From Polyangiaceae bacterium (GTDB taxonomy: Bacteria; Myxococcota_A; Polyangia; Polyangiales; Polyangiaceae), in NCBI GenBank assembly GCA_050287085.1, contig JBNKBE010000001.1, positions 192,001 to 256,000 of the forward strand: a DNA stretch of 64,000 bases, in the 5' to 3' direction. Made by a program: the position numbers and the translations under genes. How positions within the stretch are numbered: the stretch's first letter is position 1; each line of letters opens with the position of its first letter. Positions 2,756-44,900 of the stretch are shown here, piece after piece. The notes beneath the pieces are model-generated. The model had not been told where the DNA came from. It made no database searches and saw nothing but the letters and a program-made list of their open reading frames with translations.

Positions 2756-2831
2756 GACTATCGAGCAGCGTGCTCGGAGAGCCGCGGAGCCGCAAGTCCT
2801 AAGCGCTGGATGACAGGACTTCGAGGTGGCG

Positions 2832-6418: not shown

Positions 6419-6420
6419 GG

Positions 6421-25280: not shown

Positions 25281-25805
25281 ATGGTTACCTCGGCACTCGA
25301 TAGCTTGATCGTCGACAAGCTGGAACGCCTGCGGGAACGTCTCCACCGCTTGGGTGAGCGCCCCTCCATGCGTTTTCCCAGCGCCTCCCCCGATCTTATT
25401 GAGGTCATGACGGTGCTCGAGCGCTACGGCGCAATGTGCGAAGCCATGTATCTCATGATGGCGGCGGACGGAAAGGTTCTCAACGTGGAGCGCGAGGTCC
25501 TGCGCGGAGCGCTGGAAATCGTGGCAGACGGAACCGTACGAACCGCGCATATGGAAGCCATGTTGGACGCCGCGGCGCGGAAGGTCGCGACGGAGGGCGT
25601 CGACGCACGCCTCGAGGCGGTAGTCCACGCCCTGTCCGCTGACACCATCAAAGCGGAACTGACCCTCGTGTTGTGCGCCGCGATCGCCGTTGCCGATCGC
25701 AAGCTCCCGGATTCGGAACGCGCGTTGTATCATCGCTTGGCGAGTGGTCTCGAAATCGACGCTGAGCGCGCCAACCAGCTTCTTCAAGAACTGGCCCAAG
25801 GCTAG
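25281..25805 (+). CDS. TerB-family (tellurite resistance-like) protein
   Basis: AMYLMMAADGKVLNVERE and AIAVADRKLPDSERALYHRLASGL paired TerB motifs. Confidence 0.8.
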   Translation: MVTSALDSLIVDKLERLRERLHRLGERPSMRFPSASPDLIEVMTVLERYGAMCEAMYLMMAADGKVLNVEREVLRGALEIVADGTVRTAHMEAMLDAAARKVATEGVDARLEAVVHALSADTIKAELTLVLCAAIAVADRKLPDSERALYHRLASGLEIDAERANQLLQELAQG

Positions 25806-26421
25806 AGCCTGACCCGAACGCGGCTGCGCCTTGCGCGGTGACCCAGCCATCACCGCGGCTGCGGCTAAGCCCACCTTGGCGGCAGCGCCCGACCCTTGCG
25901 CGGAGCCGTTCAGTGCAGCTTGACGACGCGACTCCGGCGCTCGGGCCCGCAGATGGAACACCCTCCGAGCGCGTCCCCGTTCAGGATCGAGTCAGTGCTT
26001 TGCACCAAAGCGGTCATTTCCTGAACCGGGTGTTTCGCCCGTTCGAATGTTTCTGAACGTCATCAAACACGACTCAGGCTCCAAAGCGGAAACAGGATTG
26101 CAGCATTTATTCCGCCCAAGAGCGTTCGTTTGTTGACTCTTGGAGCTGGTCTTGGCCCCGCACCTCGAATCCAGAAACCGTCTCGAAACAGCAACCGACG
26201 CGAAACGCCCGCGTCCGCTCCGCTTGTTTCTAGATCACGTCTCCTCGGTAGCAATGTCGCTTCGTGGTCAGTCCGCGACGCTTCGCAGGCGATGTTTCCC
26301 GTCTGCGTCAGCTTCAGTTCATCTTCGCCACCTGCCGCAACGCTCTTGCGACGGCAGTCTCACTCTTTAGGATGGGTCGTGTTCACCCCCTGCCGCAGGG
26401 CTCAACGTAAGCACGAAACCC

Positions 26422-27870
26422 ATGAAGACAAAACGCCCCAAGCAAACTCCTGTTCTCCCGCAAATCTCCCGTCGCCAAGCTAGCGGCTATCTCATGGCAT
26501 CGGTCGCTGCCGCAGCCGGCTGTTCCAAGAAGGAAGCGCCAAAGCCGGCCGCTCCAAGTGGATCCGCTTCCACGGCCGCGGCCACCGAAGAGCTGCTCAA
26601 AGGCCTCGATCTCGAAAAGGATCAGCTGAAGCTCGGCTTCATCAAGCTGACGGATTGTGCCCCCCTCATCATCGCGAAGGAGAAAGGGTACTTCTCCGAC
26701 GAAGGCTTAACGGTCGAGCTTGAAGCTCAGGCTAACTGGAAGGTCCTTCTCGACCGAGTGATTGGTGGGGAACTCGACGGCGCGCATATGCTCGCCGGTC
26801 AACCTATCGGCGCAACCATCGGTTTTGGAACGAAAGCCCACGTCGTTACCGCCTTCAGCATGGACCTCAACGGCAACGGCATTACCGTGTCGAACGAGAT
26901 CTGGAAGGAGATGCAGAAGAACGATCCAAAACTGGCATCTCCGACTCCACCTCACCCCATTACGGCCGAAAGCCTCGTTCCTATCGTCAAGGCGCGAAAG
27001 GCCAAAGGTGAGATCCTGAAAATGGGCATGGTATTCCCGGTCTCAACTCACAACTATGAGCTCCGCTATTGGCTGGCCGCGGCGGGCATTCACCCGGGGT
27101 TCTACACCGCAACAGATGCTCGTGGTGTTGATCAAGCGGACGTTGAGCTCAGTGTCACGCCTCCCCCCCAGATGCCGGCCACTCTCGAGGCGGGTACCAT
27201 TCAAGGCTACTGCGTAGGCGAGCCATGGAATCAGCAGGCAGTAGTCCGAAAGATCGGCGTGCCGGTCACCACCAACTACGACATATGGAAGAACAACCCT
27301 GAGAAGGTATTCGGCGTATCCAAGGAATGGGCCGACAAGAATAAGAAGACCCACGTAGCCGTCGTCAAAGCGCTAATCCGCGCTGGGAAGTGGTTGGACG
27401 CATCGTTGGAGAACCGCAAGGAAGCGGCCAAGATACTATCCCAGAAAGAATACGTCGGTGCGGATGAACAGGTCATAGCAAACAGCATGACCGGCACGTT
27501 CTTGTTCCAGTCCACGGACAAGCGCTCGATGCCGGACTTCAACGTATTCTATCGCTACTACGCCACCTACCCGTTCTATAGCGACGCCATTTGGTTCCTC
27601 ACTCAAATGCGTCGGTGGGGCCAGATCGCCGAGAGCAAACCGGACTCTTGGTATCACGAGCAAGCCAAGAAGGTCTATCAACCCGCGATCTACCTGGAGG
27701 CCGCGCAGGCACTGCTCGAAGAGGGCAAGATCGATAAGTCCGAGGTCCCTTGGGATACGGATGGATACAAGGCGCCCACGTCTGACTTCATCGACGGTGT
27801 CGAATACGACGGCAAGAAGCCACTCGACTACGTCAAGAAGTTCCAGATCGGCATGAAGGACGCCGGCTGA
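26422..27870 (+). CDS. nrtA: NrtA/CmpA-family ABC substrate-binding lipoprotein (nitrate/nitrite type)
   Basis: [72 protein letters not shown] twin-arginine-like signal with lipobox AAGC. Confidence 0.93.
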
Positions 27871-27883
27871 GGTCAGATTCTGC

Positions 27884-27920
27884 GTTGGGGGGCGCGCGGT
27901 GTGGTGCCGCGCCCCCCGGC
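27884..27920 (+). terminator. Intercistronic stem-loop after nrtA
   Basis: GGGGGGCGCG (27887-27896) pairs with CGCGCCCCCC (27908-27917); no U-tract. Confidence 0.6.
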
Positions 27921-27960
27921 GCACCATTCGCACCACTCACTTGTAATAAGGAAATTCGGA

Positions 27961-29073
27961 ATGGCTGTTAAAGAAAGAATTATCCAAGGATTAGACATCG
28001 CGGGGCTATCTGTACTCGAGCCCCTCGTTCGTCTGATTTCTGGCGAGGACCCCCGCGAGCAAATGCGCAAGCTTGCGCGTTTTGTCGGCATTCCCATGCT
28101 CGCGTTCGGATGCTTCCTCGGGTCCTGGTCCGTCGTCGCGCGCAACATAGAAACCAAGTACGGGACTCTGCCCACGCCCGTAGAGGTGTTCCACGAAGCC
28201 AAGAATCTTGCCGCTGATCACTACGCCACTCGCGCCGAAGAGGACGCTTTCAACGTATCCCGCGCTGAAACTGTAGCCAGCCTTCAGACCGTCCGCACGC
28301 AATTGGCCTCCGCACTCGCCGCGGCACAAGGTACCAGGGCCGAATCGCTAAGCGCCAAGCTCTCCAAGATAGACGCACGTATCGAACAGACGAAGCAGCG
28401 TCGCTTCTCCGCTAGCCCCACGTACTTCGACCAGATCATCACCAGCCTGAAGACTGTCTTTGCCGGCTTTGTCGTAGCCTCATTGATTGCGATTCCGATC
28501 GGCATTCTGTGTGGACTAAGCCCCACATTTCAGGCGGCGGTCGCCCCGCTCATACAGATCTTCAAACCTGTTTCTCCACTTGCCTGGCTTCCGATCGTCA
28601 TGATCGTAGTGGGCGCTCTGTACACTACGAAGCCGAGCGAAGCCTGGTTCGAGAAGTCGTTCATCAGCTCTGCTCTAACCGTAGCGTTGTGCTCGCTATG
28701 GCCAACGCTGACCAACACGGCTCTCGGAGTCGCGTCCATCGAGAAGGATCATCTGAACGTCGCTGCCGTACTTCAGCTCGACTTCTGGACACGTATCCGC
28801 AAGATCGTACTGCCTTCGTCATTGCCACTAATGTTCGCTGGCCTAAGAATTTCCCTTGGCGTAGGGTGGATGGTGTTGATCGCCGCTGAAATGCTCGCAC
28901 AGAACCCGGGGCTCGGTAAGTTCGTCTGGGACATGTTTCAGAACGGCAGCAGCCAAACCCTGGCGCAGATCATGGTGGCCGTCTTCACCATCGGCTTCAT
29001 TGGCTTCCTGCTAGACCGCGTAATGGTCACACTGCAACGCTCGGTTAGCTACGACTCACAGGTTGCAGCGTAG
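27961..29073 (+). CDS. nrtB: Nitrate ABC transporter permease
   Basis: [66 protein letters not shown]. Confidence 0.93.
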
Positions 29074-29084
29074 AAAGGCCCCTG

Positions 29085-29957
29085 ATGTCATTCCTAAGCC
29101 TCAATCGAGTAAACAAGGGCTTCGGGGTTGGAAACAGCCGCACTGAGGTGTTGCGTGGTATCAACCTCGACATCGAAGAAGGTGAGTTCATCGCTATCAT
29201 CGGGTTTTCAGGTAGCGGTAAGTCAACCCTGATCAACCTGATAGCGGGGCTCACCACGCCGGACTCCGGGACCATCAAGCTCGCAGGAGAGACAATTAAA
29301 GGAGCCGGCCCAGACCGGGGAGTGGTGTTTCAGAACTACTCGCTTCTGCCGTGGCTCAGCGTCTATGAAAACGTCGCCTTGGCCGTCGACCGTGTCTTCC
29401 CGGCGTGGTCCGCTGACAAGCGACGTGAACACTGCCTCAAGTACATCGACATGGTTAGCCTGACGCCCGCATTGGGAAAGAAGCCCCGCGAGCTTTCGGG
29501 CGGTATGCGGCAGCGGGTCTCGGTTGCCCGTGCCCTCGCCATGAATCCCAAGATGCTACTCTTGGATGAGCCACTGGGAGCATTGGACGCCCTGACGCGA
29601 GCTGTTCTCCAATCCGAAATCGAACGCATTTGGGAAGCCGACAAGAAGACAGTAATCCTGATTACCAACGACGTAGACGAAGCACTGTTGCTTGCCGACC
29701 GCGTGATCCCGCTGAAGCCAGGTCCCAACGCAACCCTCGGCCCAAGTTTCAAGGTCGATCTGGATCGCCCTCGGGACCGTACGAAACTCAACTCGAATGC
29801 CCAGTTCAGGAAGCTACGCAACGAACTCGTTACGTATCTTACTCGCTGCCGCAGCGAAGCGCGCGCAGCAGAACGGCAAAACGCCAGCTCTGACGATGGA
29901 GACGAGGAATTTGTTCCCCGCGCAGAGCCACTAGATTTACTTCCCGCTCGCAGCTGA
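29085..29957 (+). CDS. nrtC: Nitrate ABC transporter ATP-binding subunit 1
   Basis: [35 protein letters not shown]-loop reads ITND. Confidence 0.9.
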
Positions 29958-29965
29958 GGTTCAGG

Positions 29966-30778
29966 ATGGCAGGCTACGTAGAACTATACAAAGTAGGTAA
30001 GACCTATGAGACCCCCAAGGGTCCCGCGGTCATCGTCGAGGACTTCAATCTCAACATCGCGGAAGGCGAGTTCATCGCTCTTCTCGGCCATTCAGGCTGC
30101 GGAAAATCCACAGTCTTGACGATGATGGCTGGCCTAAACTCAATCACAACCGGCGGCATCGTCGTCGCCAAGCGTGAGATCAACGGCCCAGGTCCCGACC
30201 GAGGTGTGGTATTTCAATCCCCATGCCTCATGCCCTGGCTCACAGCTGGGGAGAACGTTGCGCTCGGGGTCGATCGCGTCTTTCGACACGAGTCAAGAGA
30301 AACGCGTCAGAAGATGGTGCGCTACTATCTGAAGCTAGTTGGCCTCGGAGAAGCGGTCGATAAGCGTGCTTCCGACCTTAGCACGGGCATGCAGCAACGC
30401 GTAGGCATAGCACGAGCGTTTGCGCTGTCGCCCAAGATGCTATTGCTCGACGAGCCCTTCGGGATGCTGGACTCACTGACCCGCATGGAATTGCAGGAGG
30501 TACTGCTCAACATCCTGGAGCGCAACCGCAAGACGGCCCTGATGGTGACACACGACGTGGACGAAGCCTTGTTCTGCGCCGATAGGGTCGTCATGATGAC
30601 GAATGGACCGGCCGCACAAGTCGGCAAAGTCATCGAGGTTCCTTTTGAACGTCCGCGCGAGCGAGAGGCCGTGATGTCGCACCCTGACTACTACCGGCTG
30701 CGCGAAGAGATGATCGGCTTCCTCGAGGAGCAGGAGAAGCTCAAGCATCAGGCCAAATCGAGCGACAAGGCGGCGTAG
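29966..30778 (+). CDS. nrtD: Nitrate ABC transporter ATP-binding subunit 2
   Basis: [45 protein letters not shown]. Confidence 0.9.
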
Positions 30779-31114
30779 CAGAGAGCGCACCCTGCGCAGG
30801 CTGGAGCGCGGAGGCGCTGCCCCTGGATGAAGCGCCAAGCCGGGTCTCCCCGGACTCAGAAGGACGCGAGTCGATACCGACCGCGTCCTTCCTGTATTTG
30901 GACAGCGCCCTAAGAACGCCCGGGACCTAGGGGAATGACGCCGGCGGCGGCACAGCGCTGTTCGAGCACACCCCAGGTCGCATCGAAGCCTGGCCGTTCC
31001 AGGGAAACGAAAACGCCTGACCACGCAGGCACGGGAGTGTTTCTGTCTCTTTTAATCTGAGGACGGGCTCAGTTCCCATTTGCAGCATTCCAGATACCTC
31101 TTTAGGTTGAGTGC

Positions 31115-33163
31115 GTGCTTGGACGTTCGAGAACGCGAAAGACGGAGCTTCTGGTTCGGGCTGAACCTAAGCCTCTTCGCCTGCTCAAGAAGGCAGAGCG
31201 AAAGCGTCGTTTGGTGATGATCGGAAACGGCATGGTGGGTCAGCACTTCTGCCGGCGCGCAGTCGAACGCGGCATGACCGACGCCTTCGAGTTCACGGTT
31301 CTTGGTGAGGAAAGCCGCTCGGCATACGACCGCGTGCACCTCACAGAGCTATTGCTTGAGAAGCAAACGACCGCCGGTCTCACGTTGGCGCCGCGCGAGT
31401 GGTACGAGGAACAGCGCGTTCTGCTGAAGACCGGAGACCCTGCCGTAGCGATCGACCGTGAAGCTAGAACCGTGCTCACTCGAAGTGGAGCACGTTATCC
31501 GTACGACTGTCTAGTCTTCGCGACAGGGTCGCGAGCAAATCGCCCACGCTTTGAGGGCTCCGACTTGGAGTCTGTCGTCACGTATCGCGACGTCGACAAC
31601 GCACTGCGCATACGCGCGCTCGCTCTGGACGCCATCTCGTCGGGACGGCCCATTGCGGTCCTGGGCGGAGGACTCCTGGGAGTCGAGATCGCGGAAGCAC
31701 TTCAAACGCTCGGCGTCGAATGCGTCGTGGTCGAAAGCTCATCGTATCTGCTTCCGAGGCAACTCACGCGAGCGGCCTCGCGCAGGGTGGCAGCCAAGTT
31801 GCGCGAGGCCGGACTCCGCCTTGAGCTCAATGCCCGAGTCAAGGCAGCTCGTCCGCTGGTGGCCGACGGCCATGAACTGCTTCGCTTGCATCTCGACAAC
31901 GACAAGGAGTTTCTCGTACGCGGCGTGGTAGTTGCAGCTGGTGTTAGGCCGCGAGACGAGCTCGCAAGGCAGAGCGAGCTTCGCTGCGACGACTACGGAG
32001 GCATCGAGGTCGACGACCACCTCAGAACCTCAGATCCGAACGTATTTGCCATTGGTGAGTGCGCCCGCCACGAGAACGTCTGCTATGGCCTGGTCGCACC
32101 GGGCTACCACATGGCGGAGGTTCTTCTCGACAACCTCCAGGGAAAGGGCACCAGGTTTAGACAGCTCCGCACGTCTTGCAGACTGAAAGTGAAGACTATC
32201 GAGCTCTCAGTCGTGGGTGACAGCTTCCTCGAGGGTCGCGAGGTCGCCAACTACACCCGCGAGCAAGATGACAACTATCGAGCTTTGGTGGTACGCAACG
32301 GGCGACTCATCGGAGCCACCGCCATTGGCGAGTGGTCAAGTTTTGCCGCAGTTCAGACCGCGGTGGGACGTCAACAGCGCTTGGGCGACCGGGCGGCGCG
32401 ACGCTTCGAACAGGGAGTAGAACTGTGGAGAGCCGCTGCCGCCGATGTATCTGCCTGGCCGGATGACGCCATTGTGTGCTCCTGCACAGGCGTGACGTGC
32501 GGAATGTTGCGAACAGCCAAAAAGAGCGGCTGCACCACGGGCGCAGCGCTGAGCGAGCGCACCGGAGCTGCCACGGTGTGCGGGACCTGCGCGCCCCTGC
32601 TGACTTCGCTTTCGGAGGGCGTCCCCGCGCAGGTCGCAACCAGGAGTCGAGCGCTGCTACCCCTCGCCGGGATTGCTGTCGTCCTTGCGCTCGTCGTCCT
32701 GGCGGCCCCGCCCATGCCTTTCGTCGATACGACGCTCGGAGGTGTTCATCTCGACGCGCTTTGGCGTACCACTGAGTTGCGCCAATTGACCGGCTTCGTT
32801 GTCCTCGGACTTGCCATTTGTCTGGGAGCGCTATCGATCCGCAAACGCGTCAAGCGAGTTAGACTCGGTTCTTTCGAGGGCTGGCGCACGGTCCACTTTG
32901 CCGTGGGCGCCCTTGCGATGATTGCCGTCGCTACACACACTGGCCTTCACCTAGGCCACAACCTCGATCAGGTGCTGCTCTTGGTCTTCGTCAGCGCCGG
33001 AGCGCTCGGCGGCGTCGCTGGAGGCGTCCTTGCGCTGGAAAGACGCCTCACTCCTGAGCATGGCGCGGCCCTGCGCCGGACTTACAACGCCATGCATTTC
33101 GCATTGACCTGGCCTCTGCCCGTCTTGCTGCTGGTGCACATAGTGAAGGTCTACTTCTTCTAA
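31115..33163 (+). CDS. NirB-like FAD/NAD(P)H oxidoreductase + BFD [2Fe-2S] domain fused to a C-terminal membrane domain (putative di-heme b)
   Basis: IGNGMVG, AYDRVHL, FATGS, LGGGLLGVE, AAGVRP, TSDPNVFAIGECA, GLVAPGY; CSC...CGTC; then about 5 TM helices with two H-x13-H pairs. No siroheme/[4Fe-4S] domain. Start uncertain. Confidence 0.88.
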   Translation: MLGRSRTRKTELLVRAEPKPLRLLKKAERKRRLVMIGNGMVGQHFCRRAVERGMTDAFEFTVLGEESRSAYDRVHLTELLLEKQTTAGLTLAPREWYEEQRVLLKTGDPAVAIDREARTVLTRSGARYPYDCLVFATGSRANRPRFEGSDLESVVTYRDVDNALRIRALALDAISSGRPIAVLGGGLLGVEIAEALQTLGVECVVVESSSYLLPRQLTRAASRRVAAKLREAGLRLELNARVKAARPLVADGHELLRLHLDNDKEFLVRGVVVAAGVRPRDELARQSELRCDDYGGIEVDDHLRTSDPNVFAIGECARHENVCYGLVAPGYHMAEVLLDNLQGKGTRFRQLRTSCRLKVKTIELSVVGDSFLEGREVANYTREQDDNYRALVVRNGRLIGATAIGEWSSFAAVQTAVGRQQRLGDRAARRFEQGVELWRAAAADVSAWPDDAIVCSCTGVTCGMLRTAKKSGCTTGAALSERTGAATVCGTCAPLLTSLSEGVPAQVATRSRALLPLAGIAVVLALVVLAAPPMPFVDTTLGGVHLDALWRTTELRQLTGFVVLGLAICLGALSIRKRVKRVRLGSFEGWRTVHFAVGALAMIAVATHTGLHLGHNLDQVLLLVFVSAGALGGVAGGVLALERRLTPEHGAALRRTYNAMHFALTWPLPVLLLVHIVKVYFF

Positions 33164-34452
33164 TGATGGCGCGCGCAGTCTGGCTCTGGCTCGCCGCAAG
33201 CGCCCTCGGAATCGGCTGGTTCTTGATCGCTCTATTGGGTCCATCCAAAGTTCAGAAGGCGGCCTTCTTGCCGGGCAAGACGACCCACGGACACTATCAG
33301 ATCGAACTCAGCTGCGATGCCTGCCACACACGCGCGTTCGGCGGGACTGAAGCGTTGGATGAAGGCTGTCGCAGCTGTCACGCCGCTGAGCTCCAGGAAG
33401 CCAAAGACTCGCACCCTACTTCCAAGTTCACCGATCCGCGTAACGCAGCCCGCGTCGCCATCTTGGACGCGCGCAGCTGCGTCGCCTGCCACAAGGAGCA
33501 CCAGCCAGAGCAAACCCACAGCATGGGACTGACTTTGCCGGAGGACTACTGCTTCAAGTGCCATGAGGACGTAGGCAAGGAACGACCAACTCACCAAGGG
33601 CTCGACTTCGCCACCTGCGCAAGTGGCGGATGTCACAACTTCCACGACAACCGCGCTCTATACGAAGACTTTCTTCTCGACCATGCCAGAGAGCCGGTGA
33701 ACAAGGACGACGGAAGGATGCCCGCAAGCACCGTAAGGCCGGTGAACTCCCTGTCCACCCCTGACCTCGTGTCACTGGCGGACAAGCTTGACGTCGAACA
33801 GCTTTCGGCCCTGAAGAGCACGGCACACGGTAGAAGTCCGCTGAACTGCAGCAGCTGCCACGAAAGTCGCGACGCGTCCGCGAAGGTCTCGATCGAGCGG
33901 TGCCGAAGTTGCCATGGTGAAGAAGCCGAAGCCTGGGAACAGAGCCACCATGGCATGAGCTACGCCGCAGGCAACGGACTGCTGCGAACCGGCCAGGCTC
34001 GCTTGCCAATGAAGGCTGGCTCCAATCAGAAAGCCCTGGACTGCAACTCGTGTCACCCGGCTCACGGCAACGACCCAGCCTACGCCTCATTTGAGGCGTG
34101 TATGCACTGTCACGACGATGAGCACTCCAATAGCTACTCGGGCAGCAAGCACTTCAAGACCTTCGAGCAAGCCATAGCCAGAGGCGCCCTGGAGACGGGG
34201 GTGTCCTGCGCAACGTGTCATCTTCCTCGCGTTCGCGGTAGCGGCGCTGGCAGCGTCCTGCACAACCCGAACGCGACTCTGCGCCCCAACGAAAAAATGG
34301 TGAGGCCCGTGTGCCTCAACTGCCACGGTCTTGCGTTCGCGCTCGACGCCCTCGCCGACGACGACTTGGTTCGACGCAACTTTCAGGGCCAGCCGAGTCG
34401 TCACGTCACCAGTATCGAGATGGCGGTCACGCGAGATGAACAGCACCATTGA
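33163..34452 (+). CDS. Membrane-anchored multiheme cytochrome c (10 CxxCH + 1 CxxxxCH)
   Basis: N-terminal hydrophobic anchor; motifs CDACH, CRSCH, CVACH, CFKCH, CASGGCH, CSSCH, CRSCH, CNSCH, CMHCH, CATCH, CLNCH. Start overlaps the upstream stop (TAATG). Confidence 0.93.
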   Translation: MMARAVWLWLAASALGIGWFLIALLGPSKVQKAAFLPGKTTHGHYQIELSCDACHTRAFGGTEALDEGCRSCHAAELQEAKDSHPTSKFTDPRNAARVAILDARSCVACHKEHQPEQTHSMGLTLPEDYCFKCHEDVGKERPTHQGLDFATCASGGCHNFHDNRALYEDFLLDHAREPVNKDDGRMPASTVRPVNSLSTPDLVSLADKLDVEQLSALKSTAHGRSPLNCSSCHESRDASAKVSIERCRSCHGEEAEAWEQSHHGMSYAAGNGLLRTGQARLPMKAGSNQKALDCNSCHPAHGNDPAYASFEACMHCHDDEHSNSYSGSKHFKTFEQAIARGALETGVSCATCHLPRVRGSGAGSVLHNPNATLRPNEKMVRPVCLNCHGLAFALDALADDDLVRRNFQGQPSRHVTSIEMAVTRDEQHH

Positions 34453-34575
34453 GAACCCCGTAGCGCCTCATTCACCTTCAACCACCAACCCACAGTCGAA
34501 TCGCAGACCTTCTTCGTACGAGCTCTCACTCGGAGCCAACGAACGCGGCCATATACCCACATCAAGGAGCAAACC

Positions 34576-35157
34576 ATGCAACTGTCCAAGTATACACTCG
34601 CAGCGGCCCTCGTCGGCGCCGTTGCAACGGCTGCCTGCGGCAGCAAGAGCAAGTCTGACGGTCCCAGCGCGGGCATATCCCCCCAGGTTATGGCCGATGC
34701 ATTGCACGCCGTCATGGCGTCCGATCGAACCGTCTACACCAAGAAGGTGGTCAACCGACTTGCCGTGCAAGAGAAGGTCATCAAGGCGAGCGAGCATTGG
34801 GAAGACGAAAAGACGCTACCGCTCCCTGCCCAGATGTTTCGGATGGGCGCGGAAATGGTCTCCGCCAAGAACTTAGGCTTCAGCTACGCTCTGCTTTCGG
34901 AGTGGCCCATCAACAAGCAAAACAATCCAAAGACTGACATCGAGATAAAAGGCCTTCGCTATGTCGCAGAAAACAAGGGCAAGAACTTCTACGGCGAAGA
35001 GGAGCTCGGGGGGCAGAAATACTTCACTGCCGTGTATGCGGACACCGGCGTCGCCGAAGCTTGTATCGGCTGTCACAATGGCCACAAGGACTCCCCCAAG
35101 ACGGACTTCAAGCTCGGCGACGTGATGGGTGGGGTGGTGCTCCGCATTCCAATCTAG
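34576..35157 (+). CDS. DUF3365/Tll0287-like monoheme c lipoprotein
   Basis: AAGGAG RBS; lipobox TAAC; DRTVYT, LPLPAQMFR, PINKQNNP, single CIGCH, and C-terminal FKLGDVMGGVVLRIP typical of DUF3365. Confidence 0.85.
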   Translation: MQLSKYTLAAALVGAVATAACGSKSKSDGPSAGISPQVMADALHAVMASDRTVYTKKVVNRLAVQEKVIKASEHWEDEKTLPLPAQMFRMGAEMVSAKNLGFSYALLSEWPINKQNNPKTDIEIKGLRYVAENKGKNFYGEEELGGQKYFTAVYADTGVAEACIGCHNGHKDSPKTDFKLGDVMGGVVLRIPI

Positions 35158-35176
35158 CGCCCCACACCGCGGTCCA

Positions 35177-35201
35177 CGCGTGGCGTCCGGAGCGCCACGC
35201 G
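35177..35201 (+). terminator. GC-rich hairpin closing the nrt/cytochrome locus
   Basis: CGCGTGGCG-TCCGGAG-CGCCACGCG perfect 9-bp stem about 20 nt after the stop; no U-tract. Confidence 0.55.
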
Positions 35202-35387
35202 AAGCCGTCCGCAACCCTCCATGGGCGTTGGGTCATTGACGACGCAGCCTCACCCGCCTACCCTACCGGTAGGTCTTTCGGCTCTGGTCGTCCCCTGCTA
35301 GCTGGAAGGATTCTGAGCTCCTTCCTCAAACTGTCCCCCTCAAGTTCATGAGGCTGCGACCGTACAGCACCTACAGGACTTGAGGCC

Positions 35388-35924
35388 ATGGTGGAACCGC
35401 CCGCTGAGCGACAGGATGAGCTGACCGCGCTAGACGAAGTCGTAGTCGATGCGACGAGGGGGCTTTTTGGCGCCTATGGCCTCGACATATGTGGCAACCG
35501 CTTCGCCCAAAGCGGGTGGCGAGGACCGGATGGGTCCTCCGCGAGCGTTGTTGGATTCACCAGCCCAGACTTCTCCGGGTCGCTGGTGATCGGCACCACG
35601 CTGGATATCGTTCGAGAGACCTCACCTGAGGCGTCCTCTCTACATGATTGGATGGGTGAACTCGCCAACCAACTCCTGGGACGAATCAAGAATCGGCTTC
35701 TCCGCTACGGTGTTGCGCTCGATATGGCGATTCCCGTCGTCATCATGGGTATAGAGCTACGCACGCCAGTAGTAGAAGGCCGACATGTCCTGGACTACGG
35801 CTTTGATTCAAAACTGGGAAAGATCGTAGTTCGCGTCGACTTGACGCCGACGTGGCGGCTTCACCCACCGTGTGACGGTGAGGACACCACAACGGCGGAA
35901 GAGGGAGAGCTGCTGCTCTTCTAA
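35388..35924 (+). CDS. cheX: CheX-family chemotaxis phosphatase
   Basis: SVVGFTSPDFSGSLVI, DWMGELANQLLG (ExxN), MAIPVVIMG, C-terminal EGELLLF. Confidence 0.85.
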   Translation: MVEPPAERQDELTALDEVVVDATRGLFGAYGLDICGNRFAQSGWRGPDGSSASVVGFTSPDFSGSLVIGTTLDIVRETSPEASSLHDWMGELANQLLGRIKNRLLRYGVALDMAIPVVIMGIELRTPVVEGRHVLDYGFDSKLGKIVVRVDLTPTWRLHPPCDGEDTTTAEEGELLLF

Positions 35925-35973
35925 ACATCAGGGATTGGTTCGCATAACAAGCTAGAACAGTAAGGAATTCGCA

Positions 35974-36342
35974 ATGAGCAAGAGAGTGCTGGTAGTCGAC
36001 GACTCCGCTACCATTCGTCAGCAAGTGCGCCTGGCGCTCGAGGGGGCAGCATTCGAGGTATTCGAGGCCGTGGACGGCATCGACGGTGTGAACAAGATCA
36101 ACGATCTTTCCGATCTGTCCGCCGTGATCTGTGACGTCAATATGCCCGGAAAGAGCGGTCTGGAGCTCTTGGAAACCGTGAAGGCGGAGGCCAAGAACGC
36201 CGACCTGCCGATCGTTATGTTGACGACAGAAGGTCAGCCAACGCTAGTTCAACGAGCCAAAAAAGCTGGAGCAAAAGGGTGGATAATCAAGCCGTTCAAA
36301 GCTGAGCTGCTGGTGGCGGCCCTCAAGAAGCTCACTGCGTAA
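35974..36342 (+). CDS. cheY: Single-domain response regulator (CheY)
   Basis: VLVVDDS, CDVNMP, MLTTE, AGAKGWIIKPF. Confidence 0.92.
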   Translation: MSKRVLVVDDSATIRQQVRLALEGAAFEVFEAVDGIDGVNKINDLSDLSAVICDVNMPGKSGLELLETVKAEAKNADLPIVMLTTEGQPTLVQRAKKAGAKGWIIKPFKAELLVAALKKLTA

Positions 36343-36349
36343 ACAACGT

Positions 36350-36380
36350 CTGGGGCTGGGCGAGCCAAGCCTAGCCCCAG
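36350..36380. terminator. Hairpin between convergent genes
   Basis: CTGGGGCTGGGC / GCCTAGCCCCAG 12-bp stem (one G-U pair), 7-nt loop. Confidence 0.6.
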
Positions 36381-36459
36381 CGAAGAAGGGTCGGGTGGAT
36401 ACCGCCCATCACGGCCCACGCAAGAAGGGCATGAGCGCCCGACGCTCCCAGGCATTGAC

Positions 36460-36945
36460 TCAGCCCGCGGAGGGAGTGAGCGAAGGGGCGCGGCACCAAT
36501 GCCCAAGACCATGCAGTAGCGCGCGTTGTTCCTGGCTCGTTTCATCAAAGTGGAAAGCCAATGTGGCCACACCACGGCGAAGCTCAATGAGTCTTACCAG
36601 CGTGGCGGAGAGCTCTAGTTGACGCTCCTCACCGTCGTGTCTGGCCCGCAGCCAGAAAGTCAGGTGGCAAGCCTCGACCAGCTCCAGCTGGTTGTGTTGA
36701 GCGAGATCAACCACGATACCGCTCTCAGAGACCTCGCGCACGAGCACGCTTTCTTCAACCTGTTCTCCCCGATGCTCCCGAACTATCTTGGCGATAACAC
36801 GCTGCGGATGCCGCGTCGCACGCGGGGGTCGTAGCTCGTCGATAAGCGCGGAGAGCTCAGCCCGCTCGGCGCCTTTGAGGCGCCCCAGATGCGGATACCG
36901 CTTCTTGTCCAACGTATAGTGCCCGTGGTCATCATCACTTGTCAT
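36460..36945 (-). CDS. Hypothetical protein with a degenerate PilZ-like domain
   Basis: PRATRHP...VREVSESGIVV...LSATLVR...LAFHF resembles the PilZ RxxxR / DxSxxG / final-strand pattern; start overlaps the cheB-like stop. Confidence 0.6.
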   Translation of the reverse strand: MTSDDDHGHYTLDKKRYPHLGRLKGAERAELSALIDELRPPRATRHPQRVIAKIVREHRGEQVEESVLVREVSESGIVVDLAQHNQLELVEACHLTFWLRARHDGEERQLELSATLVRLIELRRGVATLAFHFDETSQEQRALLHGLGHWCRAPSLTPSAG

Positions 36946-37952
36946 CGCTTGATGTTCTCCTGATGACTGGCGATCTGCGCGTCGATATACGCGGCCAGGT
37001 GGTCCAGTGGGAATACCCGCGGCCCTCCCCCCGTGTCGATCACACTCTGAGGCATAGCCCCCACCTCAGACGAGGCAGGGTCTTGCACCGCGAGGGTGCC
37101 GCCAGCTGCCGTGAATCGAAGTGCCCCCTCAGCGCCGTCACAACCGATACCCGTGAAAATCACTGCCGTGGCGGTCTTGGCCACTGCCGTCGCAGACTTG
37201 AGCAATGGGTCCGCTGACGGCCTCACGTGATTCACCTCGGGCTCGTCAGTCAGCAGAAAGGACTGACCGCTTTCAGCGATCCGCAAGTGATGACCTCCTG
37301 GGGCCAGGTATACGAGCCCAGCCTCCACTCGACTGCCATGTTCTGCCAGGCAGACTGTCACCTCCAAGCGCCCCTGCAATCTATGGCTAAACGTCTCAAC
37401 CATCCACGCCGGACCATGCTGCAATATCACGCAGCAGCAGCTGGCAAGCCACTTGGTTCGGGCGAGCACTTTCTGAATGGCCATGGGGCCTCCCGTCCCG
37501 GCCACCAGCAGGACGATGGGACAGTTTGTCTCCGCTTGTTGCCGTGGCGATAGAGTGCTGGGAGGCGTCAGCTCCAGAGGATGATGGTTCGAACGGGCAA
37601 GCGCGCGCTCGATACAGCGCCCCAATTCGTCGGCTCTCACCGGCTTTGCTAGATACTCATCCGCCCCTGCGTCCAAAGCCTGACTTCGCGCCTGGTCAGA
37701 AGCTGTGGCAGTCAGAATGACCATTGGCGGAGCTGGTCTGAGCACTTTGCGTAGCTCGGCTATCAACACCAGCCCGTCCATATTGGGCATCATCCAGTCG
37801 GTAAGAACCAGGTCGAACGGGCCCTGCGACTGACAGGTCGCTAGAGCCTCGATGCCATCGCGAGTGCGGACGTATTCATGGCCGAGCTTCTTGAGCATTC
37901 TGCCGATGAGCAGAGCGTTCGTGTCGTCGTCTTCAGCAACTAGGATGCGCAT
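36942..37952 (-). CDS. cheB: REC + CheB methylesterase-like protein (catalytic Ser replaced by Gly)
   Basis: REC (LVAEDD, TDWMMP, AKP); CheB domain VAGTGGP, LQHG, YLAPGGHHL, RPSADPL, FTGIGCDGAEG, QDPASSEVGAMP. Confidence 0.85.
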   Translation of the reverse strand: MRILVAEDDDTNALLIGRMLKKLGHEYVRTRDGIEALATCQSQGPFDLVLTDWMMPNMDGLVLIAELRKVLRPAPPMVILTATASDQARSQALDAGADEYLAKPVRADELGRCIERALARSNHHPLELTPPSTLSPRQQAETNCPIVLLVAGTGGPMAIQKVLARTKWLASCCCVILQHGPAWMVETFSHRLQGRLEVTVCLAEHGSRVEAGLVYLAPGGHHLRIAESGQSFLLTDEPEVNHVRPSADPLLKSATAVAKTATAVIFTGIGCDGAEGALRFTAAGGTLAVQDPASSEVGAMPQSVIDTGGGPRVFPLDHLAAYIDAQIASHQENIKR

Positions 37953-39727
37953 CGTTCTCGACCTGTCTCATTCTCACACGCAAGTGAAACACGATCCCGG
38001 TTAACAAGGGCCAAACCCGGCTTCAGGAACTCATCGATGCGGATCTTGAAGCCCACCTTTCCATCACCCATCACAGCAACGTCCGTGGGGCGGTCCTTCA
38101 CGCACGCATCGTAGGTTAGTGATTGGCACAGCGCCTTTCTGCGTCCGAGCACTTCATCGACAACCAAGATCGCCATGTTTCCTTTGCGGTCTTCGAGCAA
38201 GACGCCGATCGTTGTCGGGGATTGGAGACGTCGAACGTCAGCGCGACCCGGCAGGTGACAGACACGATACGCGCGGCCTTCATACATGGCGCTGACGACT
38301 CCGGCCGGGTCGCAGACGATGCCGAGCTCCGTGCGAGCAACGAAGCGGTGCACATTGCGCAAGGGTAGTAGGAAGATGGATTCGCCCGAACGAACGGCGA
38401 GGCCGTCGACCACCGGTGAGCCCAACTTCGGCACCTGCAAGGTGAACGCGGACCCTTCACCGAGCTCTGTCTGAGTAGCGACGGTACCGCCAGCGCCAAC
38501 GATGTGCTGCTTGACCACGTCCATGCCAACGCCGCGCCCAGACAGCTCTGATACTTGCAGCGCCGTCGAAAACCCTGGAGCAAAGATGTACTCGAGGACT
38601 TCGTCCTTCGACAACGTGGCCGCCGCCCGCTCGTCGAGCAATCGCTTGTCGACAACCTTGCGGCGAACACGCTCAGGGTCAATGCCCCGGCCATCGTCTC
38701 TAAGCGTTACCACGACCATGTCGTCGGTATCTTCGAAAGAGAGGTCCACGCGGGCGCGCTGCGCTTTCGACGTCTTCGAGCGTTCCTCTGGCGTCTCGAT
38801 ACCGTGGTCGGCGGCATTCCGAACCATGTGCATCAACGGATCCTTCAAGATCTGGACGACGTTCTTGTCGATCCGCAGATCCCGCCCCTGGATCACCAAC
38901 TCGATCGCCTTGCCAGTCTTTCGACAAATGTCCCGCAGACTTCGCTCCAGCGGCCCCACGAGCTGAGAAACCGGAACGCGTTGGATGTCGAGCAGCTGCT
39001 CGTAGAGCTTCTCTATCGCAGTGTCAAACTCGCGCGATAGTTGAGTGAGACCGCCCCATCGTTCAGCCTCCTCATGCGTGCTGTTCACCAGATCGCGAGC
39101 CCCCTGATGGACGAAGAACTTGAGTCTCTCATCGATCTGAAACAGCTCGCCGGCGACCTTCATCGAATCGACTATGCATTGGGCGTCGACCCGCAGCTTC
39201 TGACCTGCGCCGCCCCCGCCGTCGGAAGACGCACCCACCTCCGGGCTCACTGGCCCACTAGCTGGGCCGCTGTCGGTGAACACGGGCACTGGTTCTGCAC
39301 CAGCGGTCTGCGTCGGCCCGACGAGCCGTTCAAGCACCTGGAGGCATTCCCCAAGCTGGTCGGAAATGGTCTGCATTTCCAAGCCCGTATCCGTCGACTC
39401 GATCAGCGGGTGCAGTAGATCCACAGCTTCGATCAGCTGCCGCGCCTCGAGCTCCGTAAGAGCGCGCCCGGCTTCGCGCACAACGTCGAGCGCACTCTCA
39501 ATCCGGTGTGCGAAGTTGCTGACGGAGGTGCGCCCCGCCATCGCCGCATTGCCCTTGATGGAATGAAAGCAGCGAAATAGCGAAGCGACGACCTCGGTCC
39601 CCTGGCCCTCGCCGTGTCCAATGGCCCTCAGCGTCCACAAGGCGCTCTCCAAGCTCTCCAGAGCTTCTGCTAGGACCACCTCTATCAGGTCGGCATCAAG
39701 CTCAGTATCGGCATCGTCCGTCGTCAT
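37940..39727 (-). CDS. cheA: Chemotaxis histidine kinase CheA
   Basis: Hpt FRCFHSIKGNA, dimerisation region LRVD, DPLMHMVRNAADHGIE, DDGRGID, FAPGFST, SGRGVGMDVV, C-terminal CheW-like domain. Confidence 0.95.
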   Translation of the reverse strand: MTTDDADTELDADLIEVVLAEALESLESALWTLRAIGHGEGQGTEVVASLFRCFHSIKGNAAMAGRTSVSNFAHRIESALDVVREAGRALTELEARQLIEAVDLLHPLIESTDTGLEMQTISDQLGECLQVLERLVGPTQTAGAEPVPVFTDSGPASGPVSPEVGASSDGGGGAGQKLRVDAQCIVDSMKVAGELFQIDERLKFFVHQGARDLVNSTHEEAERWGGLTQLSREFDTAIEKLYEQLLDIQRVPVSQLVGPLERSLRDICRKTGKAIELVIQGRDLRIDKNVVQILKDPLMHMVRNAADHGIETPEERSKTSKAQRARVDLSFEDTDDMVVVTLRDDGRGIDPERVRRKVVDKRLLDERAAATLSKDEVLEYIFAPGFSTALQVSELSGRGVGMDVVKQHIVGAGGTVATQTELGEGSAFTLQVPKLGSPVVDGLAVRSGESIFLLPLRNVHRFVARTELGIVCDPAGVVSAMYEGRAYRVCHLPGRADVRRLQSPTTIGVLLEDRKGNMAILVVDEVLGRRKALCQSLTYDACVKDRPTDVAVMGDGKVGFKIRIDEFLKPGLALVNRDRVSLACENETGRERCAS

Positions 39728-41928: not shown

Positions 41929-44900
41929 CTAGGACTCCGCCAAGCTCTTGATGTGTGCCAACAGAACCGTCAACAAGGCGAAGCTCGGCGCGGCGGCCGC
42001 CCGCGCTTCGCCCAACATCGCATCGTAGGCGGCCAACGATTCGCCCCGTGTCGCGCACCACAAGGAATATGCGTCCGCGTTCGCTCGACCGCTCGCTACG
42101 TCAATCGCGGCTCGCGCCACTGCCCGATGGACGCGGGCCAGCTCCGCAAGAAGACTCACCACTGCCTGGCGATCCCAGATGCGCTCCGTCGGCAACGCCC
42201 TCGCTGTCGCACGAATCCAACCGACGGCCAGTCGCTCCGCCAGGCTATGGTAGACGAGAGCTGCCGCTTGTGCCTTGACGCCACCACCTTCGGCAAGTTC
42301 GGTCCACTCTCCGGCGCCCGACAGAAGCGGCAGCTGCGCTACCCGCAACGCCGTATCCTCTGGAACGCCCTGCCCCTGCCACGCCTGAGCATGCTCCGCA
42401 ATGGCCTGACACTGCTCGACCGTAACTACCTCCGCCAAATTCCCTTTTAGCTCACGAACGACGCCTTGATAGCGAGCCACGCACTCCGCCATCGAGAGCT
42501 GAGAAACGTTCGCTCCGAGCAGCCAGGTAGTCCAGGCGTACAACGCTCGACCCAGCTCTACGTAGAGCTCCGCTTGCACGGCAGCGCTCACGCTACCATC
42601 CAGGACGTCGACAGCGCGCGTCAACGTATCGATCTCCAGCACATCGCGAGCGACAGCGAATGCCCGAACCACTCGTGCAGGCGATGCCTGCGAAACCTGG
42701 GCGGCTTCGTAGACAAACACCGCACCGCCGAGATTGAGCACGTCGTTGGTCAAACTGGTTGCGATGATCTCTCGGCGCAAACGGTGCTGCTCGATCGCGC
42801 TCTGGAAGCGGCTTCTTAGCGCGCTGGGAAAGTACTCGAAGAGGCGCGTCTGCAGATAGGGCTCGTCGGGCACAGCGGAAGCCAACAGCTCAGCGTAGAG
42901 TTGGTTCTTCGTATGTGACAAGACGACGGAGAGCTCCGGCCGCGTCAATGGGTGACCTCGATGTTTGCGCTCCGACAGGGTGTGGGCGTCGGGTAGGAAC
43001 TCGAGCGTTCGGTCCAGCGCTCCCTGCTTTTCAAGATAGCGCATTAGCGCACCCAAACGCTCGGTGAGGTAATCCCCCAAGTATTGGGTCACACTCAGGC
43101 AGCGGGTCTGAAGGTAGTTGTCTCGAAGCACCAGCGCGGCAACCTCTTCGGTCATCGCGTACAACAAGTCGTCGCGTTGTCTTCGCGTAATCTCCCCTTC
43201 GGCCTCAACGTGCCCGAGCAGGATCTTGATGTTGACTTCATGATCTGAACAGTCGACGCCAGCGGAGTTGTCTATGAAGTCCGTATGGCAGCGCCCGCCG
43301 GCGAGAGCATATTCAACGCGCGCTCGCTGCGTCACTGCAAGATTCGCCCCCTCGCCGATCACCTTCGCTCGCACCTCGCGGCCGTCCACACGCAGGCCGT
43401 CGTTGCTACGGTCACCCACTTCGACGCTCGATTCGCCCGTCGCCTTGACATAGGTGCCAATGCCGCCGAAGAACAGCAATTCAACAGGGGCACGAAGGAT
43501 CGCTCGAATCAGGCTGCTGGGCGCCATCGGCCCCGGCTCGATCGCCAAGCGAGCCGCTACCTCTGCCGAGACCTCTATCGTCTTGGCGGCGCGCTCAAAC
43601 ACTCCCCCACCCTCGGAGATGACCGCCTGATCGTAGTCCGCCCAAGAGCTCTGCGGCAGCTCAAATAGGCGCCGTCGCTCCCGCCAGGAGGGTTCCGGCT
43701 CCGGATTGGGGTCCAGAAAGATGTGCTGGTGGTTGAAAGCTGCGACCAACTGAGTCGCTCGGGAAAGAAGCATTCCGTTGCCGAATACGTCACCGCTCAT
43801 GTCTCCAACGCCGCAAACAGTGAACGATTCGGACTGGATGTCCTTGTTCAGCTCTCGGAAATGACGCTTGACCGACTCCCAGGCGCCGCGCGCCGTGATC
43901 CCCATCTTCTTGTGGTCGTAGCCGGCCGAGCCCCCAGAGGCGAACGCATCGCCCAACCAAAAGCCGTACTCGCTGGAGAGCGCGTTTGCGACGTCCGAAA
44001 ACGTCGCTGTACCCTTATCAGCTGCAACGACAAGATACGGATCCAAGTCGTCATAAACGACCGTACGCGGCGGTGTTTGCACATCGCTCCCAACTCGGTT
44101 GTCCGTCAGGTCCAGCAAGCCACGAATGAAGGTCTTGTACGCCTCAACACCCAATGCCCGCGTCGCGTCGCGCGAGAGCCCCTCGCTGCGGCTCTTGACG
44201 ACAAAGCCGCCCTTGGACCCTACGGGCACGATCACGGCGTTCTTGACCTGCTGAGCCTTCACCAAACCCAAGACTTCTGTGCGAAAGTCCTCGCGGCGAT
44301 CAGACCAACGGAGCCCGCCTCTAGCCACGGGACCAAAGCGCAGGTGCACACCCTCCATTTCGTGCGAGAAGACGAATATCTCTCGATACGGCCTCGGCTC
44401 GGGCAAGCCGTCGATGGCGCGGCTGTCAAACTTCAACGACAGCTGCGGCTTCGGTCGTCCGTCGTGCGTCTGATAGTAATTGGTCCTGAGCGTCGCCCCC
44501 AGCACATTGAGGAACGAGCGCAGTATGCGATCCTCGTCAGAGTTGGCCACGCTGTCCAGGAAGCGCACAGCGGATGCGGAAATCGCGGCCGAACGTTCCG
44601 CACGAGCGGCCATGTCGATGTCCTCGGGCCGAAAACGCGATTGGAAGAGCTCCACCAGCAAGCGAGCAAATGCCGGATAGCGTGCCAACGTTCGCTGCTT
44701 ATACGCCATAGAAAACGGCACGTCCGACTGCTGCAGATACGCCGCATAGGCTCGCAGAAGAAGTATCTCCCTGGCCTTGAGCCCAGCCGCCAGCACCAGC
44801 TTATTGAAGCCGTCATTGGCCATTCGGTTCTGCGACACTGCACGAAAGACGTCCGCGAAGGCGTCGCGAACAGCCGACAGCTCGACCGCTTGCTCGCGCT

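Follow-up and report, generated by a model that had tools for sequence, protein, structure and literature searches.

A conserved trio of a flavoprotein-cytochrome b fusion, an 11-haem cytochrome and a Tll0287-like lipoprotein beside nitrate-import genes in a Polyangiaceae bacterium, with a tentative role in nitrogen-oxide handling

Three adjacent genes in a 64-kb stretch of DNA from a Polyangiaceae bacterium (the window, i.e., the whole stretch that was analysed) encode a flavoprotein-cytochrome b fusion, an 11-haem cytochrome c and a Tll0287-like monohaem lipoprotein. Together they form a fixed module, referred to here as the trio, and chance juxtaposition of the three genes can be considered settled, since they were found together in nearly all of 80 related loci. 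We propose, tentatively, that the trio is an NAD(P)H-driven conduit to periplasmic haems, which would handle nitric oxide (NO) or a related nitrogen oxide (N-oxide) derived from nitrate/nitrite uptake and assimilation. The openly accessible papers and preprint texts that were searched yielded no account of the module, in line with what an earlier reading of the same DNA made without database searches (hereafter, the sequence-only reading) had supposed. The trio is encoded as follows:

31115..33163, + strand: flavoprotein-cytochrome b fusion, 682 residues, GTG start, assigned by Pfam and NCBIfam matches
33163..34452, + strand: 11-haem cytochrome c with an N-terminal membrane anchor, 429 residues, ten CxxCH motifs and one CxxxxCH motif
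34576..35157, + strand: Tll0287-like (sCache_haem) monohaem lipoprotein, 193 residues, PF11845 at 68.5 bits against a cut-off of 24.1

Conservation of the trio and its neighbours

In order to place the trio among related genomes, a word-indexed search was performed with the cytochrome, which returned more than 3,385 related clusters (90% identity) among the 8,000 candidates scored, the best of them about 45–53% identical. A scan of one genome per species, made with patterns taken from two polar motifs of the cytochrome (residues 82–95 and 156–170), yielded 592 confirmed stretches, and the best 80 loci were kept for the trio counts. In these loci, the window proteins were placed by tblastn, open reading frames (ORFs) were called and clustered, and representative neighbour clusters were named with Pfam. 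Neighbours were counted where 8 kb or more of sequence was available on each side, which was the case in 51 loci (full-flank loci).

Upstream sequence of 2.1 kb or more was available in 73 loci, and in all of these but one (L088) the flavoprotein head and tail were encoded immediately before the cytochrome, in the same orientation (72 of 73). On the downstream side, where 78 loci extend for 800 nt or more, the Tll0287-like gene immediately followed the cytochrome gene in 76; in the other two (L066 and L081) it lay upstream. According to their record titles, the carriers belong to Myxococcota, Gamma-, Beta- and Alphaproteobacteria, Planctomycetota and Verrucomicrobiota, and further to Acidobacteriota, Nitrospirota, Poribacteria, Binatia and Lentisphaerota. 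Culturable carriers among them include Alcanivorax sp. DSM 26293, Neptuniibacter sp. CAU 1671, Maricurvus nonylphenolicus KU41E, Roseiconus nitratireducens JC645 and Lentisphaera marina. One locus from a Thiohalomonadales metagenome-assembled genome (L065, about 1756–11012) carried the complete trio twice, as a tandem that encloses a truncated globin and is followed by nrtABC.

The commonest neighbour of the trio was a globin, present in 44 of the 51 full-flank loci (37 of the PF00042 type and 8 truncated), and a nitrate-assimilation gene was found near 29 of them (nrtA in 21, nasT in 9, nasA in 8, nirA in 5 and siroheme nirB in 5). Counted over all 80 loci, a globin was present in 64 and a nitrogen gene in 41. 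Either a globin or a nitrate-assimilation gene lay within 8–9 kb in 46 of the 51 full-flank loci. The link to nitrogen genes claimed in the sequence-only reading is thus supported by the synteny of homologues, which do not lie mostly away from such genes, and the link to globins is stronger still. Other neighbours included a monohaem cytochrome c lipoprotein of the Cytochrome_CBB3 family (22/51), an Alginate_exp-type porin (16/51) and a Fer2-FNR reductase (7/51), while no outer-membrane conduit or metal-related gene was recurrent among the trio neighbours of the 80 loci. The usual order was flavoprotein, cytochrome and lipoprotein, then the globin, with a monohaem cytochrome c sometimes before it and a reductase sometimes after it, and the neighbouring globins are presumed to be cytoplasmic because they lack a signal peptide. 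In several related loci, nirBD or nirA stood directly beside the trio. The operon in the window is exceptional in having no linked globin; it has no monohaem cytochrome c either.

Architecture of the flavoprotein, the cytochrome and the lipoprotein

The flavoprotein contains Pyr_redox_2 (167.9 bits), Rubredoxin_C and Fer2_BFD (29.4 bits) domains, and its first ~500 residues matched only positions 1–466 of the 794 positions of the NirB model TIGR02374 (361.6 bits against a cut-off of 578.35), with no match to the siroheme domains PF01077 and PF03460 anywhere in the protein. Its layout comprises a flavin adenine dinucleotide (FAD)/NAD(P)H domain (residues 32–318), a BFD-type [2Fe-2S] domain (453–496) and a membrane domain (about 513–682), the latter modelled as five helices with a predicted local distance difference test (pLDDT) score of 90.1. 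Compared with NirB, the flavoprotein shares the FAD/NAD(P)H Pyr_redox_2, Rubredoxin_C-type and BFD-like [2Fe-2S] domains as well as a nitrate-assimilation neighbourhood, but it lacks the siroheme/[4Fe-4S] half and ends instead in a C-terminal membrane domain with four histidines. Klebsiella NasC and Bacillus NasB are stand-alone diaphorases made from the N-terminal half of NirB; the head of the trio flavoprotein is likewise a NirB N-terminal half, as is the stand-alone diaphorase Flp of Bradyrhizobium.

Residue conservation was assessed in 69 aligned flavoprotein sequences and, for the tail, in an alignment of 31 tails. The FAD and NAD(P)H motifs, G37-x-G39 and G184-x-G186-x-x-G189, were at least 95% conserved, the [2Fe-2S] cysteines C455, C457, C489 and C492 were 100% conserved, and H594, H608, H661 and H675 were 99–100% conserved in the 69 sequences and invariant in the 31 tails. 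These four histidines make up two H-x13-H pairs, located on the third and the fifth helices. In cytochrome b and in NOX/ferric reductases this pattern of histidine pairs holds two stacked b haems, for which the two pairs would be enough here as well; with a cytoplasmic head, one histidine of each pair would lie near each membrane face. The NOX/ferric reductases and the Fre-MsrQ-MsrP system lead from NAD(P)H through a flavin and two stacked b haems to an outside acceptor, and the fusion shares with them the histidine pairs about 13 residues apart on two helices. It differs from the NOX/ferric reductases in that its flavin domain is NirB-type and N-terminal, whereas theirs is FNR-type and C-terminal, in the interposed [2Fe-2S] cluster, in an acceptor consisting of a 12-haem c-type chain, and in a fold match to NOX5 of only Z 7.6.

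All profile matches of the tail were below threshold: DUF4405 in 22 of the 31 tails, Ni_hydr_CYTB in 14 (best E 1e-6) and Ferric_reduct (PF01794) in 10 (best E 0.0042), the tail of the window itself reaching only E 2.8 with PF01794. A profile of the tail found nothing meaningful among PDB sequences. The fold search with the tail was headed by generic helical bundles (talin, Z 12), and the haem-protein matches were CybB (Z 10.7), cytochrome b6 (9.0), the hydrogenase cytochrome b HyaC (8.9), FdnI (8.8) and NOX5; since generic bundles outrank the haem proteins, the fold match does not discriminate. An exhaustive HMMER search for the membrane-domain family gave 389 clusters at 50% identity (E at most 1e-30). 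In all 150 representatives listed the domain was C-terminal, and 74 of these measured 600–720 residues, 4 were longer and 72 shorter, the shorter ones including fragments in which the end of the [2Fe-2S] domain is still present. On the basis of this constant C-terminal position and of the lengths of the listed representatives, the fusion is the normal form. Two of the longer representatives (P0181, 1013 residues, and P0275, 866 residues) have N-termini that, by eye, resemble cyclic-nucleotide-binding domains. The flavoprotein on record for the window has 643 residues and starts 39 codons after the GTG at 31115, leaving out 31115–31231; this deposited start is probably too late, because the shorter form would lose the conserved G37-x-G39 FAD motif.

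With regard to the cytochrome, all 11 haem motifs were invariant in 24 aligned sequences, and so were 11 further histidines; among 120 cytochromes, nine of the extra histidines were invariant and three more were at least 90% conserved. These 12 spare histidines for 11 haems would therefore allow bis-His ligation throughout. The chain of cofactors put forward in the sequence-only reading, i.e., NAD(P)H, FAD, [2Fe-2S], b haems and c haems, agrees with the motifs conserved in the 69 flavoproteins and the 24 cytochromes. The protein falls into a c3-like region (haems 1–5) and a region resembling HAO, IhOCC and ONR (haems 6–11). The N-terminal five-haem half had only c3/c7-type Pfam matches and a weak resemblance to NrfH (Z 2.5, root-mean-square deviation (rmsd) 8.8), and no Pfam match to the NapC/NirT family was obtained for the cytochrome.

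The family profile of the cytochrome matched anammox HAO (4n4j) with an E-value of 7.8e-9, residues about 234–414 aligning to HAO 121–325, and six haem motifs aligned one to one with high posterior probability. One HAO motif, CAHCH, the fourth by order, lies between two confidently aligned motifs in a low-confidence gap and has no counterpart in the cytochrome, where residues 252–293, between H251 and C294, contain no cysteine. The catalytic haem of HAO, ONR and NrfA is placed at “position 4” in a preprint devoted to the superfamily (10.1101/2022.02.24.481543). The cytochrome is accordingly read, from its alignment, as lacking the catalytic position-4 haem motif (CxxCH or CxxCK) of its HAO/NrfA relatives. 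Since the HAO/NrfA-type scaffold is kept and the catalytic haem is lost, the cytochrome looks like a wire and not like a reductase.

The structural comparison pointed to the same superfamily. The cytochrome model, obtained with AF2, had a pLDDT of 85.2 and a predicted template modelling (pTM) score of 0.83. Although Foldseek returned no PDB match at an E-value of 0.001 or better, its weak top rows were all HAO-family proteins, and the rescored candidates reached Z 8.6 (HDH), 7.7 (IhOCC) and 7.5 (HAO). In an unbiased fold search over 48,161 chains, only 18 reached Z 2, all of them multihaem cytochromes, and the top matches, over model residues about 199–410, were IhOCC (7.7), HAO (7.5 and 6.9), Kustc0457 (6.5), ONR (5.6) and OcwA (5.5). 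These Z values are middling, so that the case for the HAO superfamily is carried by the exclusivity of the list and by the sequence E-value. In summary, the fold of HAO, HDH, IhOCC, ONR and OcwA, which with NrfA make up one multihaem superfamily, is shared over residues about 199–410 and the six haem motifs correspond one to one with those of HAO, whereas the trio cytochrome appears to lack the position-4 haem and adds five N-terminal haems and a membrane anchor.

The signal peptide of the third protein is of the lipoprotein type and ends in Cys21; the protein has a single CIGCH motif at 163–167, and C21, C163 and C166 are its only cysteines. Among 62 operon homologues, none had a cysteine outside the CxxCH motif and the signal-peptide region. 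This motif was invariant in 42 sequences, along with 31 invariant columns, many of them polar, which include R51, Y54, E73, Q86, M87, R89, Y104, W110, N113, Y154, D156, N168 and H170. A haem that is free of cysteine ligands, in a lipoprotein with many conserved polar residues, would suit ligand binding better than plain electron carriage. In a 2026 preprint (PMC12889525), the Tll0287-like family is reclassified as haem-c Cache domains; a stand-alone Pseudomonas putida protein with Cys/His ligation bound NO weakly, a Cys-less, signalling-fused Tll0287-like domain from P. azotoformans bound NO with a slow off-rate, and all three Tll0287-like proteins tested made superoxide with oxygen. In the accessible text of 10.64898/2026.02.01.703092, stand-alone sCache_haem genes are described as showing no telling genomic pattern, the words operon, multiheme and nitrate are not used, and the function of these proteins is called an open problem. 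The trio lipoprotein shares with the Tll0287/DUF3365/sCache_haem proteins the PF11845 match, the single CxxCH motif, an extracytoplasmic location and a stand-alone form. It differs from Tll0287 and from the P. putida stand-alone protein (PMC12889525) in the absence of a cysteine axial ligand, and from Tll0287 in being a lipoprotein and a fixed partner of a multihaem cytochrome. A predicted complex of cytochrome residues 27–429 and lipoprotein residues 30–193 gave scores of 0.11 and 0.05 against a mark of 0.32, without controls, and speaks neither for nor against binding.

The locus within the window and the genome

The trio is preceded by nrtABCD, and the resulting seven ORFs, all on the plus strand, extend over 26422–35157. 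The seven co-oriented genes, the TAATG overlap between the flavoprotein stop and the cytochrome start (which begins at the A of TAA) and the closing hairpin, all described in the sequence-only reading, were recovered. Besides the trio genes, the locus comprises:

26422..27870, + strand: nrtA, periplasmic nitrate/nitrite-binding protein of an ATP-binding cassette (ABC) importer (NMT1_2, 328.5 bits)
27901..29073, + strand: nrtB, ABC permease (BPD_transp_1; TIGR01183 (ntrB) at 147.5 bits, under the cut-off of 209)
29085..29957, + strand: nrtC, ABC ATPase (TIGR01184 at 292.9 bits, just over the cut-off of 291.8)
29966..30778, + strand: nrtD, ABC ATPase (TIGR01184 at 327.3 bits against the cut-off of 291.8)
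about 30850..30901, + strand: strong RNA hairpin followed by CUGUAUUU (-31.4 kcal/mol, z -5.5; 0 of 200 shuffles fold equally well)
35169..35208 (hairpin at 35177–35201), + strand: G+C-rich hairpin closing the operon, without a U tract (-26.1 kcal/mol, z -2.7)

NrtABCD is assigned by these matches as a nitrate-type ABC importer, with a binding protein, a permease and two ATPases of the ntrCD subfamily. In comparison with solved structures, NrtA was closer to NrtA 2g29 (E 2.5e-53) than to the bicarbonate-type CmpA 2i48 (E 8.9e-38), and it was 60–79% identical to the trio-adjacent nrtA products of other genomes. The hairpin at 30850–30901 lies in a 336-nt gap between nrtD and the flavoprotein gene, was not remarked on in the sequence-only reading, was absent from the output of a simple terminator scan, and is possibly a terminator or an attenuator; the nrt genes and the trio may thus be two transcripts, given the strength of the hairpin and the gap that separates them.

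A shared promoter motif, TTGCAGCATT, upstream of nrtA (26098) and of the flavoprotein gene (31080), was considered and rejected: its count in the genome, 11, equals chance (11.8 expected), and in 11 Myxococcota-type loci it does not precede these genes. By eye, the site on the nrtA side fits the sigma-54 GG-N10-GC spacing, and the site on the flavoprotein side does not. A promoter/terminator scan of 25900–35450 gave counts not above those of shuffled sequence, and an Rfam search of 25500–35600 returned nothing relevant.

Housekeeping and chemotaxis-like genes, belonging to a Myxococcota-type genome, flank the locus. Directly after the operon, at 35388–39727, there is a chemotaxis-like set encoding CheX, a response regulator, CheB and an Hpt/HATPase kinase; such genes did not recur when the neighbours in the 80 related loci were clustered. 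Two further genes on the minus strand were recorded: one for a 1605-residue NAD-specific glutamate dehydrogenase (41929–46746; Bac_GDH_CD, 829.9 bits), likewise an enzyme of nitrogen metabolism, 7 kb downstream and with no sign of linkage, and a 787-residue ORF (50553–52916) in which a TonB C-terminal domain is joined, in an odd pairing, to a TonB-dependent receptor barrel.

The sequence-only reading had remarked on the absence of molybdopterin, siroheme, NirD and CysG domains in or next to the locus, and indeed none was found in the 35 large window ORFs outside the locus or in the seven genes. Elsewhere in the genome assembly (6.2 Mb, 160 contigs, 96.8% complete), the nitrite-reducing part of that machinery is present, as a 1303-residue HemD-NirB-NirD fusion (TIGR02374, 1046 bits; NirD, 112 bits), and narGHJ (TIGR01580, 1997 bits) lies on the same contig as the trio, about 240 kb downstream. 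The genome also encodes a CysI/NirA-like haemoprotein with DUF934 and a 740-residue molybdoenzyme. Thus, nirBD proved to be encoded away from the locus; the molybdoenzyme, which belongs to the FdhF/YdeP family, is not NasA. The HemD-NirB-NirD protein is a single ORF (G000:C17, L006:7865-11776, minus strand), an unusual triple fusion in which a siroheme-precursor enzyme is joined to the user of its product. Since NirB-NirD and NarG are encoded elsewhere in the genome, imported nitrate has an ordinary route to ammonium, and the trio need not substitute for a siroheme nitrite reductase.

The cytochrome gene and the Tll0287-like gene are each single-copy in the genome. Within the order of the window genome the occurrence of the trio is patchy and island-like: the cytochrome was present in 4 of 121 sampled genomes, and in none of the 15 others of the same family. 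Similarly, among the sampled genomes of the order, a close NrtA (69% identical) turned up in G047 alone, which is one of the three others with the cytochrome, and the 15 other family members sampled yielded no close nrtA. The G+C content dips to 0.567–0.571 over 26001–30000 (nrtABCD), compared with about 0.62 on both sides. This rarity within the order and family, along with the G+C dip, suggests that the nrt/trio locus was horizontally acquired.

Proposed function and alternatives

In the function that we propose, cytoplasmic NAD(P)H would reduce the FAD of the NirB-type head, from which electrons would pass to the BFD [2Fe-2S] cluster and then, across the membrane, to the inner and the outer b haem. 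The outer b haem would in turn feed the 11 c haems of the membrane-anchored cytochrome, acting as a wire towards the lipoprotein haem as the ligand-binding end, and NO, or else nitrite or hydroxylamine, would be reduced at the periplasmic face. We infer the order of the carriers, the wire role of the cytochrome, the place of the lipoprotein at the end of the chain and the substrate. An outward direction is favoured because the NAD(P)H site is conserved and because the membrane potential favours outward movement of electrons. An N-oxide acceptor is suggested by the globin/nitrate neighbourhood together with the Bjgb-Flp precedent described below, by the lost catalytic haem of the cytochrome and by the Cys-less lipoprotein haem, and NO (or nitrite or hydroxylamine) as the substrate by the gene neighbours and the published NO binding of a Cys-less relative. 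The presence of a globin in most full-flank loci speaks for NO and not for the assimilation of nitrite.

The nearest precedent is found in Bradyrhizobium, where, according to PMC4724949, a single-domain globin and an NAD(P)H flavoprotein encoded in a nitrate-assimilation operon are a proven NO-detoxifying pair. The narK-bjgb-flp-nasC genes described there, in which the flavoprotein and the globin are embedded in nitrate-assimilation genes, and the related loci studied here have in common an NAD(P)H flavoprotein and, in 44 of the 51 full-flank loci, a globin next to it or its partners. The Bradyrhizobium system, as presented there, has neither a membrane domain nor c-type cytochromes, and the window has no globin.

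A number of observations weigh against this proposal. A search of the 96.8%-complete genome gave no PF00042 globin, no globin is linked to the trio, and the four PF01152 truncated-globin genes that are present all lie away from it. Neither a globin nor a nitrogen gene was found in five of the 51 full-flank loci (L026, L027, L048, L050 and L078). In the window, the strong hairpin and the 336 nt that part the trio from nrtD make co-expression of the nrt genes with the trio only putative. The operon lipoprotein subfamily is far from Tll0287, its own profile finding only 5b82 in the PDB, at E 0.42, and the published Cys-less domain that binds NO is a signalling receptor and not a stand-alone lipoprotein. 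Furthermore, the polar motifs at 82–95 and 156–170, which are the most conserved of the cytochrome, could form a reactive pocket, and an open haem inside the cytochrome is conceivable. Finally, the direction of flow, the substrate and the independence from quinone are themselves things that we infer, and this is counted against the proposal as well.

Several other functions have to be set against this one. The sequence-only reading had raised a siroheme-free route; taken as assimilatory, it would have nitrite or hydroxylamine reduced to ammonium for growth by the periplasmic haems. Such a route would be in keeping with the nrtABCD genes that adjoin the trio here, with the nitrate-assimilation genes near 29 of the 51 loci and with the placement of the C-terminal module of the cytochrome in the NrfA/ONR/HAO superfamily, and a multi-electron store would suit a five- or six-electron reduction. 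It is not called for in this genome, which has a complete NirB and NirD, as the 1303-residue fusion, and NarGHJ; the NrfA/ONR/HAO catalytic haem position is empty, and nirBD or nirA stands beside the trio in several related loci, so the trio does not replace these genes. We therefore regard this route as very unlikely. Little more weight can be given to an inward flow, in which periplasmic donors or the cytochrome c pool would feed the c haems, the b haems and then [2Fe-2S]/FAD, for delivery to a cytoplasmic acceptor, either a globin or a nitrate reductase. The Cytochrome_CBB3-family lipoprotein in the operon of 22 of the 51 full-flank loci and the sulfur/iron lithotroph lineages among the carriers (Thiobacillus, Tenderia) would fit this direction, as would the donation of electrons by NirB-N-type flavoproteins to nitrate reductase and globin in Bradyrhizobium (PMC4724949). 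Nevertheless, the conserved glycine motif for NAD(P)H binding agrees with a donor role of NAD(P)H, electrons would have to move against the membrane potential, most of the carriers listed are aerobic heterotrophs, and the window operon has neither the globin nor the monohaem cytochrome c, all of which makes an inward flow improbable.

The acceptor might also lie outside nitrogen metabolism, and be oxygen (with periplasmic superoxide as the product, as in an NADPH oxidase), a metal such as Fe(III), or an enzyme that repairs periplasmic proteins, as with MsrQ. The NOX/ferric reductases have the same layout, leading from NAD(P)H through a flavin and two transmembrane b haems to an acceptor outside, and five of the 51 loci have no nitrogen gene or globin nearby. 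The three tested Tll0287-like proteins made superoxide (PMC12889525), and an undecahaem cytochrome of Ca. Tenderia, not necessarily the trio cytochrome, has been proposed for extracellular electron transfer (10.1101/074997). The globin or nitrate-assimilation genes near 46 of the 51 loci and the lack of any recurrent outer-membrane conduit or metal-related neighbour argue otherwise, and an acceptor of this kind seems improbable to the same degree as inward flow. As for the quinone pool, the membrane domain could exchange electrons with it, either as an NAD(P)H:quinone reductase or in a quinol-fed supply of the c haems, in which case the chain would not run without quinone as the sequence-only reading has it. 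This is suggested by the sub-threshold matches of 14 of the 31 tails to prokaryotic cytochrome b561 (Ni_hydr_CYTB, best E 1e-6), by the weak N-terminal likeness of the cytochrome to NrfH, and by the best haem-protein folds, CybB, cytochrome b6, hydrogenase cytochrome b and FdnI, all of which we take to be quinone-reactive. Those fold matches are outranked by generic bundles such as talin, the cytochrome has no NapC/NirT-family Pfam match, and the domain is C-terminal in all 150 representatives listed, 74 of them at the full fusion length of 600–720 residues; a quinone-linked function is, in our view, very unlikely, much like the siroheme-free route.

A more specific version of outward flow is a split, NAD(P)H-powered periplasmic N-oxide reductase, in which the HAO/IhOCC-type scaffold would borrow the Cache-fold haem of the lipoprotein and be wired to NAD(P)H, bypassing the quinone pool. 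We consider it a long shot, if marginally less so than the inward and the non-nitrogen alternatives. If it were true, nitrate-assimilating aerobes of many phyla would carry an unrecognised sink for NO, hydroxylamine or nitrite.

Returning to the conduit for NO or a related N-oxide that we tentatively favour, the module forms a large group of wide distribution, no function is assigned to it in the literature covered, and it sits in the nitrate-assimilation/NO-detoxification neighbourhood of abundant marine and soil heterotrophs. The trio gives the stand-alone sCache_haem proteins a concrete genomic partner, and the module would join the NOX/MsrQ-type proteins as a second direct path for electrons from NAD(P)H to the periplasm. 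A function in the turnover of NO, hydroxylamine or nitrite would add a step to the aerobic nitrogen cycle.

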